Part shown: piece after piece, positions 13,190 to 60,710 of the stretch
Layout: each line of letters starts with the position of its first letter
How positions within the stretch are numbered: the first letter of the stretch is position 1
Sequence record: OQ067375.1
Strand: one strand, 5' to 3'
DNA from: Escherichia phage a48
Length of the DNA stretch: 64,000 nt
Notes under the pieces: model-generated
The model's database searches: none
What the model was told of the DNA's origin: nothing
The model's input: the letters and a program-made list of their open reading frames with translations, nothing else
Made by a program: the position numbers and the translations under genes

Positions 13190-13219
13190 ATTATACCACA
13201 TCCTTGTGGTAAAGTAAAC
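13190..13219 (-). promoter_or_regulatory. Early sigma70-type promoter (GTTTAC / TATAAT)
   Basis: Consensus -35 and -10 on - strand upstream of rIIA.1. Confidence 0.6.
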
Positions 13220-53425: not shown

Positions 53426-53602
53426 TTAAGTATTGTAAAACATTCGATGCAATCGTTTATACTGTCGAATCATCTTTTTAGTAGGACGAGAATAGGTTCC
53501 TACGCAAGTGGTCATATGAGGGTCCGTAGAATGTCCTTTAATAAAAAGTTTCCAAACCTTACCGCCATTTAACTTTTCAGTATAAACCAATTCGGTTTTC
53601 AT
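53426..53602 (-). CDS. Small protein, 58 aa (sub-threshold), C-terminus duplicated from upstream gene
   Basis: Last 15 aa MIRQYKRLHRMFYNT nearly identical to C-terminus of 53639..54124. Confidence 0.4.
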   Translation of the reverse strand: MKTELVYTEKLNGGKVWKLFIKGHSTDPHMTTCVGTYSRPTKKMIRQYKRLHRMFYNT

Positions 53603-53638: not shown

Positions 53639-54124
53639 TCAAGTATTGTAAAACATTTGATGCAATCGCTTATATTGCCGAATCATTTGGTCAGAAAAAG
53701 AAATTTGAGTTTCAAGCCATTCAATGTACTCTGCGGCAGCTTGCATTAAATTTCCTTCATAACCATCGTTATTTTCTTGTGCAGCTAATTTAGCTAATGC
53801 GTATGAAATACGTTCACCCTGAAATCCAGCTTTAGGTTTATGAATAACTTGATCAACTCGTTCTACGACCTCTTCAATTTCGCCATTTTCTACTGATTCA
53901 GTATTCCACAAGCACCAATACGTAATTGGCTTATCGTAGATGTTAATAATCTTTCCATCAGAAAGTTCAATTTCAATAATTCCAGTATCAGGTTCTATAT
54001 CATCTTCGCATTCTTTTGCAAGTTCACGAACTTTAAAGACAGTACCTGCACTAAGTTCCGGCCAGTAATTACACAGCCCTTTATCAGCACGATTAATTCT
54101 AAACCACTTATCTACTGCAATCAT
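53639..54124 (-). CDS. pin: Pin-like protein (161 aa from ATG; track start is TTG)
   Basis: Size and position of T4 pin. Confidence 0.45.
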   Translation of the reverse strand: MIAVDKWFRINRADKGLCNYWPELSAGTVFKVRELAKECEDDIEPDTGIIEIELSDGKIINIYDKPITYWCLWNTESVENGEIEEVVERVDQVIHKPKAGFQGERISYALAKLAAQENNDGYEGNLMQAAAEYIEWLETQISFSDQMIRQYKRLHQMFYNT

Positions 54125-54247
54125 ATCCCATCTCCATATCAATTAAGTCATTTATCGTCGGTTCATTATATACTGTTTCTTCATCAGTGTAAACCGGTTC
54201 TTCCGGCTCTGGCTCTACAGTTTCCCATCTAGCCGCCCACCAAGGTT

Positions 54248-55228: not shown

Positions 55229-55471
55229 TTATTCCTTAATTCCTAGTACTTGTTTAAAAGTCTCGTCGTAATCAAGACTTTGGCCCGTTTGTTCTTTATG
55301 TTTGTATATAATATCACTTACTTCTGATAGCATATTTTTATATGAACGAGTTAAAGCAGATTTAAGCACGCTGTATCTATCAGGAAATTTACCATGTTCA
55401 TTATAATAAGCTATTGCTAATTCACGGACTGCCTTTTCAGCAGCCTCCATATATTCTTTACGCTTGGTCAT
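55229..55471 (-). CDS. Hypothetical protein (80 aa from internal ATG)
   Basis: Start uncertain. Confidence 0.35.
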
Positions 55472-55772
55472 TTTCTTCTCGGTCAAATCGGTGTTTACAA
55501 TGACGACATTTATAACGAAGATTACTAGTCTGCCAATGGACCAATTGCACCTGTTCAGTTCCACATTCAGGGCAATTAGGAACGTTTTTAGAAGCCCTTT
55601 CACGACGTTCAACCATGACCATTACAGAATCCCAATTAACAGGAGGGCTATAATCATCACAACCATGAATCTTTCCACGCATTTCCAGATCGTCTTCTTC
55701 ACCAGCCATAATAATTTTAATTACACTAGAATTACTTGAAGCTGCAATGTCTTCTAATAGACGATTTTTCAT
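55458..55772 (-). CDS. Hypothetical zinc-ribbon protein (104 aa)
   Basis: CPECG...CRHC motifs. Confidence 0.45.
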
Positions 55773-56695
55773 TTCAATACCTCAATAGCATTGCGTAAAC
55801 CATTTGCTTTGGCGGTTAAAGCCTTAAGAACTTTAGTATGCTCTTCAATTTGTTTTTCAACTTCAATCAAACGAGCATTGAGATATTCGCGTTCTTCTTT
55901 CATAGTATCATTCCCATGATTGGATTTTGGTGTAGGTTTAAATTCACTAGGGTCCTTTAATTTAATAACAAATTTAGTTTCAAACAGCGAAAGACCATAA
56001 TTCGTATTATCATCAAAGGATTTGACTACATCCATATCAGATAATAACACGCGTAAATTATAAGCCAAAGAACTAATAGTTTCATTGTGTTTATTAGCTT
56101 CGCGTGGTTTCATATACGGAAGATTTTTATATATCTCGTGCGGAGCACAAATGATAATTGACAATTCAAATTGCCCATTCTGGGACGATGGAGTGAATTT
56201 AGCCGTAACCCAGTCTTTTACATTCACATTAATAGTACGGTTATCACCATGACAAAACAGTCTACGAGAATGCTTAAAAAGCATATTCACGTTATTATTG
56301 AATTCGTGTGAAAATTCACTAGCAAATTTTTCTTTACTATCTTTAGAAAACCATTCTTCTAAATAAGTTCTTTTCACGTCGTTAATAATATTAAATGTAA
56401 CAACACTAGCATTTGATACATTAGTCTCAATGTAGCTTGGATACATAAATTTTTTAACATTATTAACAGCTATCACAGAAGATAGTAATCGGGAACGTTT
56501 GAACCACTCGAGCAAAGAACCAAGAGAATGTGAATACGCATTTTGTGTATCTTTACAAATATGGTTTTCCCATCCAATATAGTCTAAAAAATCACGAAGA
56601 ATATTATTGATTACTGCTCTGTGTCCTATCTGATAATTACGATGTTTAGTAATAAGACTGTCAAAATAATCAATATAATGTTTACGAGTTTTCAT
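55769..56695 (-). CDS. Hypothetical protein, tandem paralog A (308 aa), C-terminal coiled coil
   Basis: N-terminus MKTRK...; shared core with paralogs B-D. Confidence 0.5.
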   Translation of the reverse strand: MKTRKHYIDYFDSLITKHRNYQIGHRAVINNILRDFLDYIGWENHICKDTQNAYSHSLGSLLEWFKRSRLLSSVIAVNNVKKFMYPSYIETNVSNASVVTFNIINDVKRTYLEEWFSKDSKEKFASEFSHEFNNNVNMLFKHSRRLFCHGDNRTINVNVKDWVTAKFTPSSQNGQFELSIIICAPHEIYKNLPYMKPREANKHNETISSLAYNLRVLLSDMDVVKSFDDNTNYGLSLFETKFVIKLKDPSEFKPTPKSNHGNDTMKEEREYLNARLIEVEKQIEEHTKVLKALTAKANGLRNAIEVLK

Positions 56696-56747
56696 GTTCT
56701 TCTCACTTGGTTAATGATTTATACTCCGAGCCATCCTTGGCTTTAAA

Positions 56748-57745
56748 TTACTTAATTAACTGTAAAGCTTGTTCCAGACGATCAAGACGATTAACAGATT
56801 CTTCCCAAATCCTTTTAGCCTGCTCATATTCTTTCTGCGCTTTATTAGAAATTTCTAGAACTTCTTTATAAGCTTTTTCTAGTGCAATAACTTCTGGACG
56901 AATTTCTATCGGTTCAGGTGAATCATCAAGACATTCCATTAGTTCCTCAAGGGTAGTTTCTTCTTTAGGAGTATTCACAATTTCATCACATTTTTGTTGG
57001 TAAATTTCTTTATCAGTAGGTGAATAAGCACATTTCACTTCACGAAGGCTAATTACGAGTTTATATCCTTCCCAACCGCATATATTCTTAAAAGGATATG
57101 TATGAATATTTTCTACTGTTTCCATACAAAGTAATGCGGTCTCTAATTGACGAGTTATAGTGCTAGCAATTGAGAAAAATTTATTAATATTCTTTTGGTT
57201 AGTTTCTGGTGTAAAAAATCTGTAATTAATAAAAATAGCTACTTTGTTTTTATCAAGCTCATATTCTTCTGCTATAATCATATCATCAGCTAAGGGATGA
57301 ATTGTACGATAATCACCATAACATAATTTAGAAGCTGATTTTAGAATTTGCTTCGTAAAACTCCTAAATTCACTAACCCAACGACGAGTAAAAATATTCT
57401 CAGGGTCTTCTTTAGTATTAAGATGATAAGTATTAACATCACCGAACCAATTGTATCCTACTACATCTTTAGTTCGTTTAATTTCTTTCCCAAATTTACC
57501 AAGAATATCTTGATTAACTAAATATGAAAGAAGACGAGACCCTTTAAAGGTTTTCTTAATATCATCTTTATCCGTGCGGCTAGAAATTTCATGAGCTTCA
57601 TGAATAAATTTACTGGAAGAAACAATACTTACATCAATATTATTGAGCCATTGATAATAGAAATAACATCGTTCTGACTAGACACAGGTTTAACTTTATC
57701 ATCAATAACGCTATTGAATGATTTGATATATTCGTTACGAGTCAT
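56748..57745 (-). pseudogene. Frameshift-disrupted tandem paralog B
   Basis: ATG with GAGGAG SD opens a 38-codon frame ending at 57629; the -1 frame is open from 57677 into the 177-aa ORF with no ATG for about 130 codons. Confidence 0.5.
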
Positions 57746-57773
57746 AATAATCTCCTCAGTAGAAAGTAAGAAC

Positions 57774-57803
57774 ATTATACCACATCCTTGTGGCAAAGTA
57801 AAC
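57774..57803 (-). promoter_or_regulatory. Early sigma70-type promoter (GTTTAC / TATAAT)
   Basis: Consensus elements upstream of paralog B. Confidence 0.55.
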
Positions 57804-58816
57804 TAGTTCAGTGCATTGTTCAGTTTAGAACGTTGCTTTATCAGATTTTGAACCCTTGACTGAGCTTGTTCTAACGCCTTTTCAGCTTCTAGCACTTCAT
57901 TGGTCGCTTTAACGAGTTCATCATCTACTGCCTTAAGAGACTTCTCAATCGCGTCAGCGTGCCATTTTTCAACAGGTTTAAGACTCGGATTTTCAATAGG
58001 AAGAAAATTCACTTTATTGAATTTCCATGCATCTTTATTACCTGAACTATACATCCAAAATTTAGGATCGTTTGATGAGTAATTAGATGAATTTAAGGTA
58101 TCTTGCACTTCTTGCTTTTTCTCTTGCGGGACTTCGTCCTTTCTCAAAAAATCGTATTTAAATGAAACGATCATATCAAGTTCATATGTTGTTGTATGTT
58201 CCCAATTTCGCTCAAAACGAGGTAAAATCTTAGATTGAACAGCAGCAACAACATCCATATACTTAAATGCTTCTGTCAACTGTGATTTAAGGCATTCGCA
58301 AATTGAAAGAGAATTTTTTGTATTAGGTTTAAAGCTAATTCGTGCAGTTCTATTATTTTCTTTTAACGGTCTTACTTCCATCTGAAGAGTATAACCATCA
58401 AATTTCAGATTCTTTAAGTTAATATCAGAGCCTTTTAATCGACTAGCAGTAGACAAAATTTGCTTTAATTGTTTACGGAACAGAGCAATAAATCTCCATT
58501 CAAGACGATAATGATTTGGATTAAAAAATCCAGTTGATAGATCAGTCTTACTTTGACCAACGCCTCGAACAAATAGAGGATTTTTATAATCAATAGTTTT
58601 ACAGAAATCGGTGAGCTGCTCGCGAGCAGTCATTTGTGTAATATACCCTGCTTTACTAAAATTACGCACCCATTCACTGCTATTCGTATACTTAAAGTGA
58701 TGAATAACACGATTAACTTTATCAGGGTCTAAATTATTTTCACACAAAAATGTCATAACATCACGAGTATAACTGGCATTACGAACCATATCTTCAATTT
58801 GAGAACGAGTTTTCAT
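57803..58816 (-). CDS. Hypothetical protein, tandem paralog C (337 aa)
   Basis: N-terminus MKTR...; C-terminal coiled coil. Confidence 0.5.
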   Translation of the reverse strand: MKTRSQIEDMVRNASYTRDVMTFLCENNLDPDKVNRVIHHFKYTNSSEWVRNFSKAGYITQMTAREQLTDFCKTIDYKNPLFVRGVGQSKTDLSTGFFNPNHYRLEWRFIALFRKQLKQILSTASRLKGSDINLKNLKFDGYTLQMEVRPLKENNRTARISFKPNTKNSLSICECLKSQLTEAFKYMDVVAAVQSKILPRFERNWEHTTTYELDMIVSFKYDFLRKDEVPQEKKQEVQDTLNSSNYSSNDPKFWMYSSGNKDAWKFNKVNFLPIENPSLKPVEKWHADAIEKSLKAVDDELVKATNEVLEAEKALEQAQSRVQNLIKQRSKLNNALN

Positions 58817-58824
58817 GGTGTTCC

Positions 58825-59733
58825 TTAAGATTTAAGTAAATCAACAATTTTAATTAATTTTTCACGTTCAGATTTAGCTTTACTACTCAATCCAGATAGT
58901 CTGAAAATTTCATCGTCATATTGTTGAATAGAAATATTCAGCTCTTCAATTTGCTTATTAAAATAATCAATTTGTTCAGAATGTTTTTCGTTACTACGAA
59001 CTGGTGCAGGTTTTGTAGGCAATTTAGTTGAACTGGATTCATCCGGGCGATAAATTAAAATACAATTTGAACCAATAGGGCATTTTGCACCAGACACATA
59101 TTCTAATGTTCCGGCTTCTTTTAAAACTTCAAAAGCTAAACAGAGATGATGACCCATATTGGCATAATCTGTAGAGTGAGCTCTGATATAATAATCATCT
59201 CCACGAGTACTAAATTTAAAACATTTAAGGTCTTCTGTATTATTGGTCTTAAAAATCATTTGTTTATCTAGACCTTTAGCTAATCGAGCACCTAATGCTA
59301 ATAATCGTCGTTGATTTTCCCACAAATCTGCGATCATTTGGTCAAATGATAATTTCGGCATTAGTCGACCATAAAGGTCATATCCTTTATTATAATTGCG
59401 AAGAATTTCACTCGCGTTAATGCGAGACAACGCTCCAATTTTATTAAGGGCTTTCATGATGCGATTAGATAAAAGCATTCCAGACCCGTTTGTTCGTTGT
59501 AAATGTTTTTCTAATCCAAATCCAATATCAACTTTAAACTTATCTAAAATTTCGGCGTGAACATCTTTATCGATAACATTTAAATTTAGTACTGGGTTAA
59601 ATTTATGAAAAAATTTATCTGACTCGTCGCGTTGAAGTACAGTCCATTCATTTGATTTTTTATTAACTAAAGATTTAATTACTGCATTGACATTATTAAT
59701 TGCTACTGACATATTTTCCTCACTCAATTTCAA
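58825..59733 (-). CDS. Hypothetical protein, tandem paralog D (302 aa)
   Basis: Similar size and C-terminal coiled coil; weaker similarity. Confidence 0.45.
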   Translation of the reverse strand: MKLSEENMSVAINNVNAVIKSLVNKKSNEWTVLQRDESDKFFHKFNPVLNLNVIDKDVHAEILDKFKVDIGFGLEKHLQRTNGSGMLLSNRIMKALNKIGALSRINASEILRNYNKGYDLYGRLMPKLSFDQMIADLWENQRRLLALGARLAKGLDKQMIFKTNNTEDLKCFKFSTRGDDYYIRAHSTDYANMGHHLCLAFEVLKEAGTLEYVSGAKCPIGSNCILIYRPDESSSTKLPTKPAPVRSNEKHSEQIDYFNKQIEELNISIQQYDDEIFRLSGLSSKAKSEREKLIKIVDLLKS

Positions 59734-60127
59734 TTTTACTAAATATACAGAATAAGATAGAACAGACTATATAAGCACCACACACAGATTGAACTAATAC
59801 CATTCCAAAGAACCAAACAATATTATCAAACAGTGTCTGTTTTACGTCGAAAGGACGTAAACTTACAGTAATATTATCACCTTTTTCTATTGAAGAATAC
59901 ATCTCTGGGGAAATATATTCACTAAATCTATAACCGTCTTTGAGTTCATATACGGCAATAAACGATAAACTAGACCCCTTTCCTTGTGTTCCTGTAATAG
60001 TATTAACTACAGTAACATCATAATCTTTATAATGCATATAATCATTAATTGCGTAATAACCATATGCAACTACTACACATAAACAACATATCAATAAATT
60101 CAATCTTTTAATTATCAACTGTTTCAT
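59720..60127 (-). CDS. Hypothetical membrane protein (135 aa)
   Basis: N- and C-terminal hydrophobic segments. Confidence 0.5.
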   Translation of the reverse strand: MKQLIIKRLNLLICCLCVVVAYGYYAINDYMHYKDYDVTVVNTITGTQGKGSSLSFIAVYELKDGYRFSEYISPEMYSSIEKGDNITVSLRPFDVKQTLFDNIVWFFGMVLVQSVCGAYIVCSILFCIFSKIEIE

Positions 60128-60182
60128 AATAATCTCAGTTAAAAGGGCTTAGAACCATTATACCATCCTTGGTATAAAGCGG

Positions 60183-60710
60183 TTATGCGAGTACCGTCTT
60201 TAACCGTTCTTCAAACTTCCGAAGAGTATTCTGGCGTTCAGCTCTTTGCTTTTTGTAAGTTTCAATACGCTCTGAAATGAGAGTGTATCGTTCATTTACT
60301 GATTCTTTCATAAAATCAGGAATTTCACGAGAAGCTTTAATCTCATCAAATTTATCAATAACAGCTTGCTCTTCAGCAATTAAGTTATCATACATTAAAA
60401 TATCTTTCTTGATAAACTCAATATCTTCTTGAGTTACACGAGATAATTTAGATGCTTTATCCTTTTTGTACTGTTCGTTAGTATCACGAGACCAGTGTAA
60501 TGTACGATTTTTATTCGTATTCTTGTAAATTTCTACAATACCGATCTCATCGATAATAACGATCCAATTCCAACGGGATTTGTAAATTTGTCCTCCGTCA
60601 ACTGTGATTTCACCTCCGATTGAGATGTCATTAAAGAACTTACTTTGTGCTTCAGATTTAAATTTACCATCGTTGTAATTTACCAAGTTGAAAATATCTT
60701 TAGCGTTCAT
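60183..60710 (-). CDS. Hypothetical protein (175 aa)
   Basis: SD GGAGGA; downstream of promoter cassette. Confidence 0.5.
   Translation of the reverse strand: MNAKDIFNLVNYNDGKFKSEAQSKFFNDISIGGEITVDGGQIYKSRWNWIVIIDEIGIVEIYKNTNKNRTLHWSRDTNEQYKKDKASKLSRVTQEDIEFIKKDILMYDNLIAEEQAVIDKFDEIKASREIPDFMKESVNERYTLISERIETYKKQRAERQNTLRKFEERLKTVLA

Follow-up and report, generated by a model that had tools for sequence, protein, structure and literature searches.

The window analysed here, a 64,000-nucleotide (nt) stretch of DNA from Escherichia phage a48, carries on its minus strand four consecutive genes, nrdC.3 to nrdC.6, whose products appear to be variations on a single ancestral protein. Our favoured interpretation, to which we assign a probability of roughly 0.6, is that this array is an early-expressed set of diversified blockers of bacterial immune sensors, a role shown for nrdC.5 of phage T4 and inferred for the other three members. 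The genes themselves and this one function were already known; what is added here is a four-way, partly structural paralogy that reaches distant T4-like phages, together with a conserved C-terminal helix, evidence of rapid gene gain and loss, and a broken copy of nrdC.4 in phage a48. The members of the array are the following:

55769..56695, minus strand: nrdC.3, intact, 308 residues; heptad helix in the last 49 codons (55772-55918)
56748..57745, minus strand: nrdC.4, frameshifted; heptad helix at 56751-56897
57803..58816, minus strand: nrdC.5, intact, 337 residues, Pfam DUF7235; heptad helix at 57806-57952
58825..59712, minus strand: nrdC.6, intact, 295 residues from ATG 59712; heptad helix-break-helix at 58828-58974

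A proven Dsr1 antagonist and its neighbours

A T4 deletion mutant is unable to plate on ECOR17 owing to Dsr1, and a plasmid carrying dsr1 shields MG1655 from that same mutant; the early gene nrdC.5, expressed from a plasmid by itself, lets the deletion phage plate again on cells that carry dsr1 (Srikant, Guegler and Laub, eLife 2022, PMC9391042). The TPR sensor of Dsr1, which is common to Avs7, is reported to be set off by the phage major capsid protein (2026 preprint, PMC12803255). Just downstream of the array lie gp49.2, an anti-OLD gene (PMC13096335), and nrdC.1, an anti-Septu gene (bioRxiv 10.1101/2025.11.20.689424). A first-pass annotation of the window, made from the sequence alone, had likened the array to host-takeover or anti-defence families, a suspicion borne out both by the capacity of T4 nrdC.5 to overcome Dsr1 and by the anti-defence character of these two flanking genes. 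In HIDEN-SEQ transposon saturation, nrdC.3 to nrdC.6 were all non-essential.

Dsr1 being an NADase, NrdC.5 and its relatives might conceivably act as enzymes, restoring NAD+ in the manner of NARP1, NARP2 and NARP3 instead of binding a sensor; other phages do resort to NAD+ reconstitution, and NARP3 counteracts DSR1. We consider this proposal extremely improbable, given that neither Pfam nor NCBIfam, nor PADLOC, offers an enzyme family for any of the four proteins, that the paralogs have no conserved residues of a catalytic type in common, and that the NARP systems are multi-enzyme pathways made of known families.

Identity and distribution of the array

The window is Tequatrovirus (T4-like) DNA whose first gene is rIIA, and several T4-like coliphages are about 97% identical to it, with no identical record among the matches listed. 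Positions 55400-60200 align over their whole length with RB32, RB33 and T4 at 94-95% nt identity and with the gene order kept; judged by this sequence correspondence, the four minus-strand genes are nrdC.3, nrdC.4, nrdC.5 and nrdC.6, in the order found in T4 and RB32, an identity that the first-pass annotation had missed. In those three phages the array is flanked by nrdC.7 upstream and by nrdC.2-nrdC.1-nrdC downstream. The first-pass annotation had counted four consecutive open reading frames (ORFs), of which three are intact as described; the second, with its 998 nt, is frameshifted. The likely start of nrdC.6 is ATG 59712 rather than TTG 59733, because the former is preceded by a GAGG Shine-Dalgarno sequence and T4 and RB32 also begin the gene there.

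At the protein level, NrdC.3 is 100% identical to its RB33 counterpart and 92% identical to that of T4, matches phrog_1435 over its full length (E 2.2e-101) and reaches 11.9 bits against the hidden Markov model (HMM) of Pfam DUF7235, where the cut-off is 30. Once repaired, NrdC.4 also matches phrog_1435 over its full length (E 1.8e-163), with 91-92% identity to intact homologues, and PF26897 is precomputed on all 64 of its 64 homologues. NrdC.5 is covered from residue 1 to 337 by DUF7235 (PF23882; E 8.3e-126, 420 bits against the same cut-off of 30), matches phrog_2351 and has 95% amino acid identity to T4 NrdC.5, and NrdC.6 matches phrog_2257 (E 1.6e-149, residues 8-302), with PF26899 present on 105 out of 105 homologues. 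Neither nrdC.4 nor nrdC.6 matches the DUF7235 HMM. No sequence relatives of the four proteins were found in the PDB, and matches to designed helical repeats, BrxC and CofH were set aside as compositional noise, which left DUF7235 as the sole informative hit.

Searches with tblastn found nrdC.3 in 653 phage records, nrdC.4 in 553, nrdC.5 in 602 and nrdC.6 in 741, every one of them from Tevenvirinae of enterobacteria. Copy number differs across T-even genomes, as the comparison proposed in the first-pass annotation now reveals: there are four copies in Tequatrovirus; Mosigvirus, represented by RB69 and Mizar, has three, namely nrdC.3, an nrdC.5-like and an nrdC.6-like gene; Dhakavirus and Gaprivervirus also have three (nrdC.4, an nrdC.5-like gene and nrdC.6); and ACG-C40 keeps a single one, nrdC.6, after a deletion that runs from inside nrdC.5 into nrdC.3 and joins codon ~69 of the former to the tail of the latter (locus L011, 4001-4412).

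Public records describe these genes in diverse terms. In GenBank, nrdC.1 to nrdC.8 are often labelled “thioredoxin”, one T6 record gives the name “tail sheath stabilizer and completion protein” to the region of nrdC.4/5, and a Gaprivervirus record calls nrdC.4 a “replication protein”. All three labels appear to be errors of annotation propagation.

Paralogy of nrdC.3, nrdC.4 and nrdC.5

The three better connected members of the array can be related by formal alignment, the check that the first-pass annotation had proposed. Family alignments were built from protein-search matches and from the loci of T4, RB32, RB9, RB69, Mizar, JS98, MN04, ABTNLS3, VR20 and EAWsc9. Among the window proteins themselves, BLASTP joins nrdC.3 to nrdC.4 (E 8e-6) and, at a borderline 0.004, nrdC.4 to nrdC.5, and nrdC.6 matches none of the other three; across phages, the nrdC.3/nrdC.4 match improves to E 3e-11, being collinear and near full length. 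Profile comparison with hhalign gives a probability of 98% (E 6.5e-14) for nrdC.3 against nrdC.4, which also fall in the same PHROG (phrog_1435), and of 93% (E 3.5e-7, 246 collinear columns) for the combined nrdC.3+4 profile against nrdC.5. When the 250 ORFs of the window are ranked, the nrdC.3+4 HMM places nrdC.5 as its best non-self match and the nrdC.5 HMM does the same with nrdC.4. The paralogy of nrdC.3 and nrdC.4 is thus clear in their sequences, and nrdC.5 is a probable paralog of both, in spite of pairwise identities that go no higher than 15-28% among the paralogs. The related N-termini that had been claimed for three of the proteins hold for nrdC.3 and nrdC.4, in which T2, R3, Y6, I7 and F10 are invariant, but not for nrdC.5, which has only MKTR in common with them.

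These links do not extend outwards by sequence. A HMMER search with the nrdC.3+4 profile against 1.84 billion representatives returned 9 proteins, all of the nrdC.3/nrdC.4 type or fragments thereof, with no bridge to nrdC.5 or nrdC.6 and no relatives beyond T4-like phages, and word-indexed searches with nrdC.4, nrdC.5 and nrdC.6 recovered only the own family in each case.

nrdC.6 as a remote structural member

The fourth gene requires another kind of evidence. Its hhalign P-values lie at 0.03-0.08 against single families and at 0.004 against the merged nrdC.3+4+5 profile, and two motifs align each time that nrdC.6 is compared with nrdC.4 and nrdC.5: the first reads FKGSRLLSYLVNQDILGKFGK in nrdC.4, FSKAGYITQMTAREQLTDFCK in nrdC.5 and LNKIGALSRINASEILRNYNKG in nrdC.6, and the second QILKSASKLCYGD, QILSTASRLKGSD and RLLALGARLAKGLD, respectively. 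The comparison of folds rests on two AlphaFold2 models, those of NrdC.4 (pLDDT 83.3) and NrdC.6 (pLDDT 78.6), which present their core elements in the same order and with the same spacing (H-H-h-E-E-H-E-E-linker-long helix). In a Foldseek search of BFVD, the NrdC.4 model matches NrdC.6 of phage JS10 (E 2.8e-5, probability 1.0), and nine remote matches are common to both models, all of them uncharacterised proteins of 300-370 residues from the T4-like phages PM2, IME523, fHyAci03, Acj61, Acj9, Mineola, CBH8, PS2 and fHe-Yen9-01. Moreover, when the hhalign alignment, obtained from sequence only, is mapped onto the secondary structures predicted independently for the two proteins, these agree at 74% (70% minus the terminal helix), compared with 42 +/- 5.5% in shifted controls; the observed value is not attained by any of the 285 shifts.

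It could be argued that nrdC.6 has no kinship with the other genes, to which it is similar in size, and that its helical C-terminus arose by convergence, so that the array would have just three related members. Such a reading would explain the hhalign probabilities of 1-8% and the silence of BLASTP and HMMER, the separate family given to nrdC.6 in both Pfam and PHROGs, and the different pattern of secondary structure in its N-terminal region. It would leave without explanation the Foldseek match to JS10 NrdC.6 and the nine matches in common, the identical order and spacing of the core, an agreement in secondary structure beyond every shifted control and the two transitively aligned motifs, and we regard it as unlikely. 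The models thus make it quite probable that nrdC.6 is a remote member of the family, more by structure than by sequence.

One of the structural relatives bears on the age of the arrangement. In Acinetobacter phage Acj61, the proteins E5E4A1 and E5E4A2 are encoded by adjacent genes, p120 and p121, near nrdC, and both have heptad C-termini, so the tandem arrangement would be old. HMM and hhalign comparisons of p120 and p121 with the family profiles were not significant, and the link is structural and positional. In the same Acj61 genome, which has these two proteins of the NrdC.4/6 fold, a nicotinate phosphoribosyltransferase gene lies next to one for PRPP synthetase (locus L012, 1229-3938), a pair that is possibly a module for NAD+ salvage or reconstitution.

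The C-terminal heptad helix

The heptad-like C-termini reported in the first-pass annotation are present in all four proteins: over the last 49 residues, the a and d positions are 79-93% hydrophobic compared with 20-26% elsewhere (shuffle p from 0.0035 to <0.0005). AlphaFold2 predicts a single terminal helix of 48 residues in NrdC.4 (285-332) and a helix-break-helix in NrdC.6 (242-271 plus 276-294). In each family the terminal ~45 residues are better conserved than the body of the protein, with identities in the last 45 residues of 73-82% versus 55-58% for nrdC.3, 60-62% versus 43-51% for nrdC.4 and 58-71% versus 34-46% for nrdC.6. The endings are also alike, following the pattern L..A(L/I)..LK, and one of them finishes in IVDLLKS. 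That the terminal helix is the most strongly conserved part is unusual for a coiled coil; this conservation points to a specific interaction and not to a generic spacer.

These same features invite the idea that the four proteins form one hetero-oligomeric complex, held by the C-terminal coiled coils and acting jointly, since all of them have the heptad helix as their best-conserved segment, with a similar ending, and their genes are co-located and largely co-transcribed. We find this very unlikely, as plasmid-borne nrdC.5 alone is enough for plating on dsr1+ cells, whole genera have three members in either of two combinations (C3/C5/C6 or C4/C5/C6), ACG-C40 is left with nrdC.6 only and phage a48 without nrdC.4, and the sequences of the helices are not close from one paralog to another.

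The conserved Cys-containing core, on the contrary, has to be abandoned. In the profile alignment the Cys of nrdC.5 (SICECL) faces SIASTI of nrdC.4, the Cys of nrdC.4 (LLCME) faces FKYMD of nrdC.5, and the position of the Cys in nrdC.6 is Arg in most homologues, so that the residues are neither equivalent nor conserved, and a metal or redox site at this motif was rejected for the same reason. What these alignments present as the conserved feature is the helix itself, not the Cys.

Two further observations concern such tails. The product of nrdC.8 (60183-60710, 175 residues) also has a charged, helical, heptad-looking tail (...ERIETYKKQRAERQNTLRKFEERLKTVLA), and in RB69 the terminal helix of the nrdC.5-like gene, DQLSVELDKAQAKLRDAQSVVTNLQLQYSKLFNAMNALKS, lies in a frame different from that of the annotated ORF as a result of a frameshift (locus L005, 5650-6000), being in frame in Mizar.

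Selection, allele replacement and gene loss

The four genes show omega values of 0.07-0.40, compared with 0-0.08 for nrdC and nrdC.8, and a dN that is 5-10 times that of either of these two genes; nrdC.4 has the highest omega of the array (0.27-0.40). From these sequence comparisons, the array genes are functional but fast-evolving. Within the genus, nrdC.3 occurs in two allele classes, with 139 records at 90% identity or more and 322 at about 60%, in genomes that are otherwise about 95% identical. Broken or rearranged copies are frequent: nrdC.4 is split into two ORFs in G8 (locus L014, 5950-6982) and truncated in T2; the protein fragments P0230 and P0231 are frameshifted versions of nrdC.4 and nrdC.3, respectively; P0226 is a fusion of nrdC.5 (146-272) with nrdC.3 (134-309) through a KVN/NVN junction; and nrdC.6 of Sf25 (P0065) contains an internal duplication of 83 residues. 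The independent frameshifts and fusions in G8, T2, P0230, P0231, P0226 and RB69, as well as the one in phage a48, look in sequence like the signature of an arms race.

The most detailed case is nrdC.4 of phage a48 itself. The interval 56748-57745 is not a single ORF, its 998 nt not being a multiple of three, and the frame is lost after codon 32 through the deletion of 4 bp that T4, RB32 and SG1 possess, with the junction at 57651/57650. What has gone is one TCAA unit of the tandem repeat TCAATCAA; in the alignment across the gap, SG1 has ATCAATCAATGG where the window has ATCAATGG. There remain an N-terminal ORF of 38 codons (57629-57745; MTRNEY...SIINGSIILM, stop at 57629-57631) and a downstream frame (56751-57677) that is open for 309 codons, the first start codon of which is only found at M157.

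The possibility that the frameshift was inherited from a sequenced relative was rejected. Among 494 matching records, the 15 listed extend over 1113-1115 nt, compared with 1109-1111 nt in the query, and therefore retain the four bases, and the metagenomic fragment P0232, which has the same divergent patch as the window, retains IINQ. As the deletion is absent from these listed matches and from P0232, the frameshift is private to phage a48 or a sequencing error. We consider nrdC.4 as probably a pseudogene in this phage, which would have been inactivated by a slipped-strand deletion of 4 bp, and whose loss would fit the gain, loss and replacement seen among its relatives. The break has to be recent, because beyond the deletion the changes relative to T4 keep the frame and are conservative, with omega of 0.35-0.40. 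The deletion sits in a patch of ~120 nt with ~30 substitutions relative to both T4 and SG1, which suggests recombination from another allele.

These data are also where a more restrictive account can be weighed, according to which NrdC.5 alone serves in counter-defence and the other three genes are either decaying duplicates or have unrelated roles in host takeover or housekeeping (for example in host transcription, translation or metabolism). The repeated breakage of nrdC.4 (in phage a48, G8, T2 and P0230) and its highest omega would be easily accommodated, as would a paralog identity of a mere 15-28% and the fact that a phenotype has been reported for none of nrdC.3, nrdC.4 and nrdC.6. On the other hand, purifying selection acts on all four genes (omega < 0.4), which are kept in 550-740 genomes, the same fold occurs in tandem and in the same place beside nrdC in Acj61, the array is surrounded by a series of genes with a proven anti-defence role, and presence or absence together with allele replacement is what would be expected of host-specific blockers of immunity. 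This narrower account seems to us rather unlikely.

Promoters and intergenic elements

Three elements on the minus strand bear on the expression of the array:

57802-57774, minus strand: early promoter of nrdC.4, GTTTAC-N17-TATAAT with a TGG extension, identical in T4 and RB32
60180-60157, minus strand: promoter-like site upstream of nrdC.7, GCTTTA, 12 nt, TATAAT with TGG
56719..56740, minus strand: hairpin with AGGA loop, and AAGGATG...TATAA, in the intergenic region ahead of nrdC.3

Of the two early promoters formerly assigned to members of the array, a canonical one does precede nrdC.4 and shares sequence with a hairpin whose loop is AGGA; the other good site lies outside the array, in front of nrdC.7, and upstream of nrdC.3 there is only a weak promoter match. 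The spacing of the nrdC.7 site corresponds to that of a T4 middle promoter of the MotA type, a class that we take from the established T4 promoter consensus, and its sequence and position indicate that it probably drives nrdC.7-nrdC.6-nrdC.5, which lie only 7-8 nt apart.

The AGGA hairpin with its TATAA element recurs on the minus strand at 57775-57795, 60158-60175 and 13191-13205, and its stems carry compensatory changes (TATACCA/TGGTATA, CCACA/TGTGG and AGCCA/TGGCT). The pattern AAGGATG-N(0-10)-TATAA occurs four times in the window, where 0.27 occurrences would be expected, and three of these fall in the array's intergenic regions. The element may represent a promoter/terminator module that was duplicated, or else a site of RNA processing.

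Elsewhere in the window, a 58-residue ORF (53426-53602) adjoins pin (53639-54142), and its last 15 residues are nearly those of pin (MIRQYKRLHRMFYNT vs MIRQYKRLHQMFYNT). By its sequence it looks like a partial duplication of the C-terminus of pin, and the RB32 annotation calls this ORF pin-like.

A model for the array and its weight

We propose that the array would descend from one gene that was long ago duplicated in tandem and whose copies diverged. The ancestral product would be a cytoplasmic protein of ~300-340 residues, with a variable, mostly helical N-terminal region followed by a core, presumably a conserved alpha/beta unit formed by two helices with the motif hLxxu(S/A)+LxxG(D), then one beta-hairpin, a long helix and another beta-hairpin; after the core would come a disordered linker and then the conserved heptad helix of 45-50 residues at the C-terminus. 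The genes would be transcribed ahead of the late genes, be dispensable in laboratory hosts and act in counter-defence. NrdC.5 would neutralise the sirtuin NADase Dsr1, as has been shown for the T4 protein, to which that of phage a48 is 95% identical, and would probably do so by direct and stoichiometric binding, most likely to the TPR sensor, so that an early-bound NrdC.5 might keep the sensor silent until the capsid protein appears. The core would provide specificity for the target and the C-terminal helix would serve for oligomerisation or docking, and NrdC.3, NrdC.4 and NrdC.6 may act in the same way on other immune sensors.

Several observations weigh against this interpretation. Among the four genes an experimental phenotype exists for nrdC.5 alone, and the HIDEN-SEQ screens did not flag nrdC.3, nrdC.4 or nrdC.6 in the hosts shown. 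A literature search for the mechanism of NrdC.5 on Dsr1, or for a new name of the factor, yielded nothing past the 2022 paper. By sequence alone, the homology of nrdC.6 is not significant (hhalign probability 1-8%), and the structural cross-hits have low TM-scores (0.35-0.5), because the domains are flexibly linked. Finally, it is only from heptad periodicity that an oligomeric role is deduced for the terminal helix.

A bolder extension, which we put forward as speculative and doubtful, is that the fold of NrdC.3-6 could be a reusable “sensor-plug” platform of T4-like phages, from those of enterobacteria to those of Acinetobacter. It would be an early-made decoy, with a core resembling a tail terminator on a coiled-coil stalk, that occupies the sensor domains of defence systems (TPR or other) before the late structural proteins are made, each paralog being tuned to its own receptor and NrdC.5 to the capsid sensor of the Dsr1/Avs7 type. 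If true, the array would represent a phage repertoire of receptor antagonists that diversifies through duplication, allele replacement and loss.

Even in T4, the best-studied phage, three of the four genes are without an assigned function. The presence of one proven Dsr1 antagonist among diverged copies makes nrdC.3, nrdC.4 and nrdC.6 candidates for inhibitors of other defences, and the structural relatives in phages of Acinetobacter, Klebsiella, Yersinia, Serratia and Erwinia are candidates likewise. The presence, absence and allele type of the array genes may contribute to explaining differences in host range among otherwise near-identical therapeutic T4-like phages, and the C-terminal helix offers a handle for separating oligomerisation or docking from target recognition.

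Comparison with known systems

The closest known case is T4 NrdC.5, of which the phage a48 protein (57803-58816) is the ortholog, in the same position, early and non-essential, although three residues shorter at its end; the anti-Dsr1 activity is known from the T4 allele. Its three companions NrdC.3, NrdC.4 and NrdC.6 lie outside the DUF7235 family of NrdC.5 and are linked to it solely through profile or structure comparison.

As a working analogy for NrdC.5 we take DSAD1 of Bacillus phage SPbeta, which inhibits the DSR2 sirtuin by binding to it. For DSR2 the activator is a phage structural protein and the repressor is DSAD1; cryo-EM structures with each partner have been published. NrdC.5 differs from this case in its target (Dsr1), in the TPR sensor, in the capsid trigger and in the host clade, and its binding would follow from the analogy; no similarity to DSAD1, either in sequence or in fold, was found in the array proteins.

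Low-ranked Foldseek matches are annotated as tail terminator or completion proteins (lambda gpU, SPP1 gp17-like, DUF3168), and the core of the array proteins matches RNA polymerase alpha/Rpo11 and nitroreductase folds equally, with similar scores. Unlike tail terminators, the array proteins are early, cytoplasmic and not parts of the virion, and have extra helical regions plus a coiled coil; the likeness to tail terminators may reflect just a generic two-layer alpha/beta sandwich.

Lastly, the array resembles gp49.2, nrdC.1 and the dmd-tifA-adfA “anti-TA island” in that all of them are early, small or medium-sized, non-essential and clustered in a variable region. Each of the genes gp49.2, nrdC.1 and dmd-tifA-adfA disables one host defence, and their copy number changes under selection. 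They are, however, mutually unrelated in sequence, whereas the four genes of the array share one ancestral fold, and the diversity of the array would therefore come from duplication and divergence and not from the assembly of unrelated genes.

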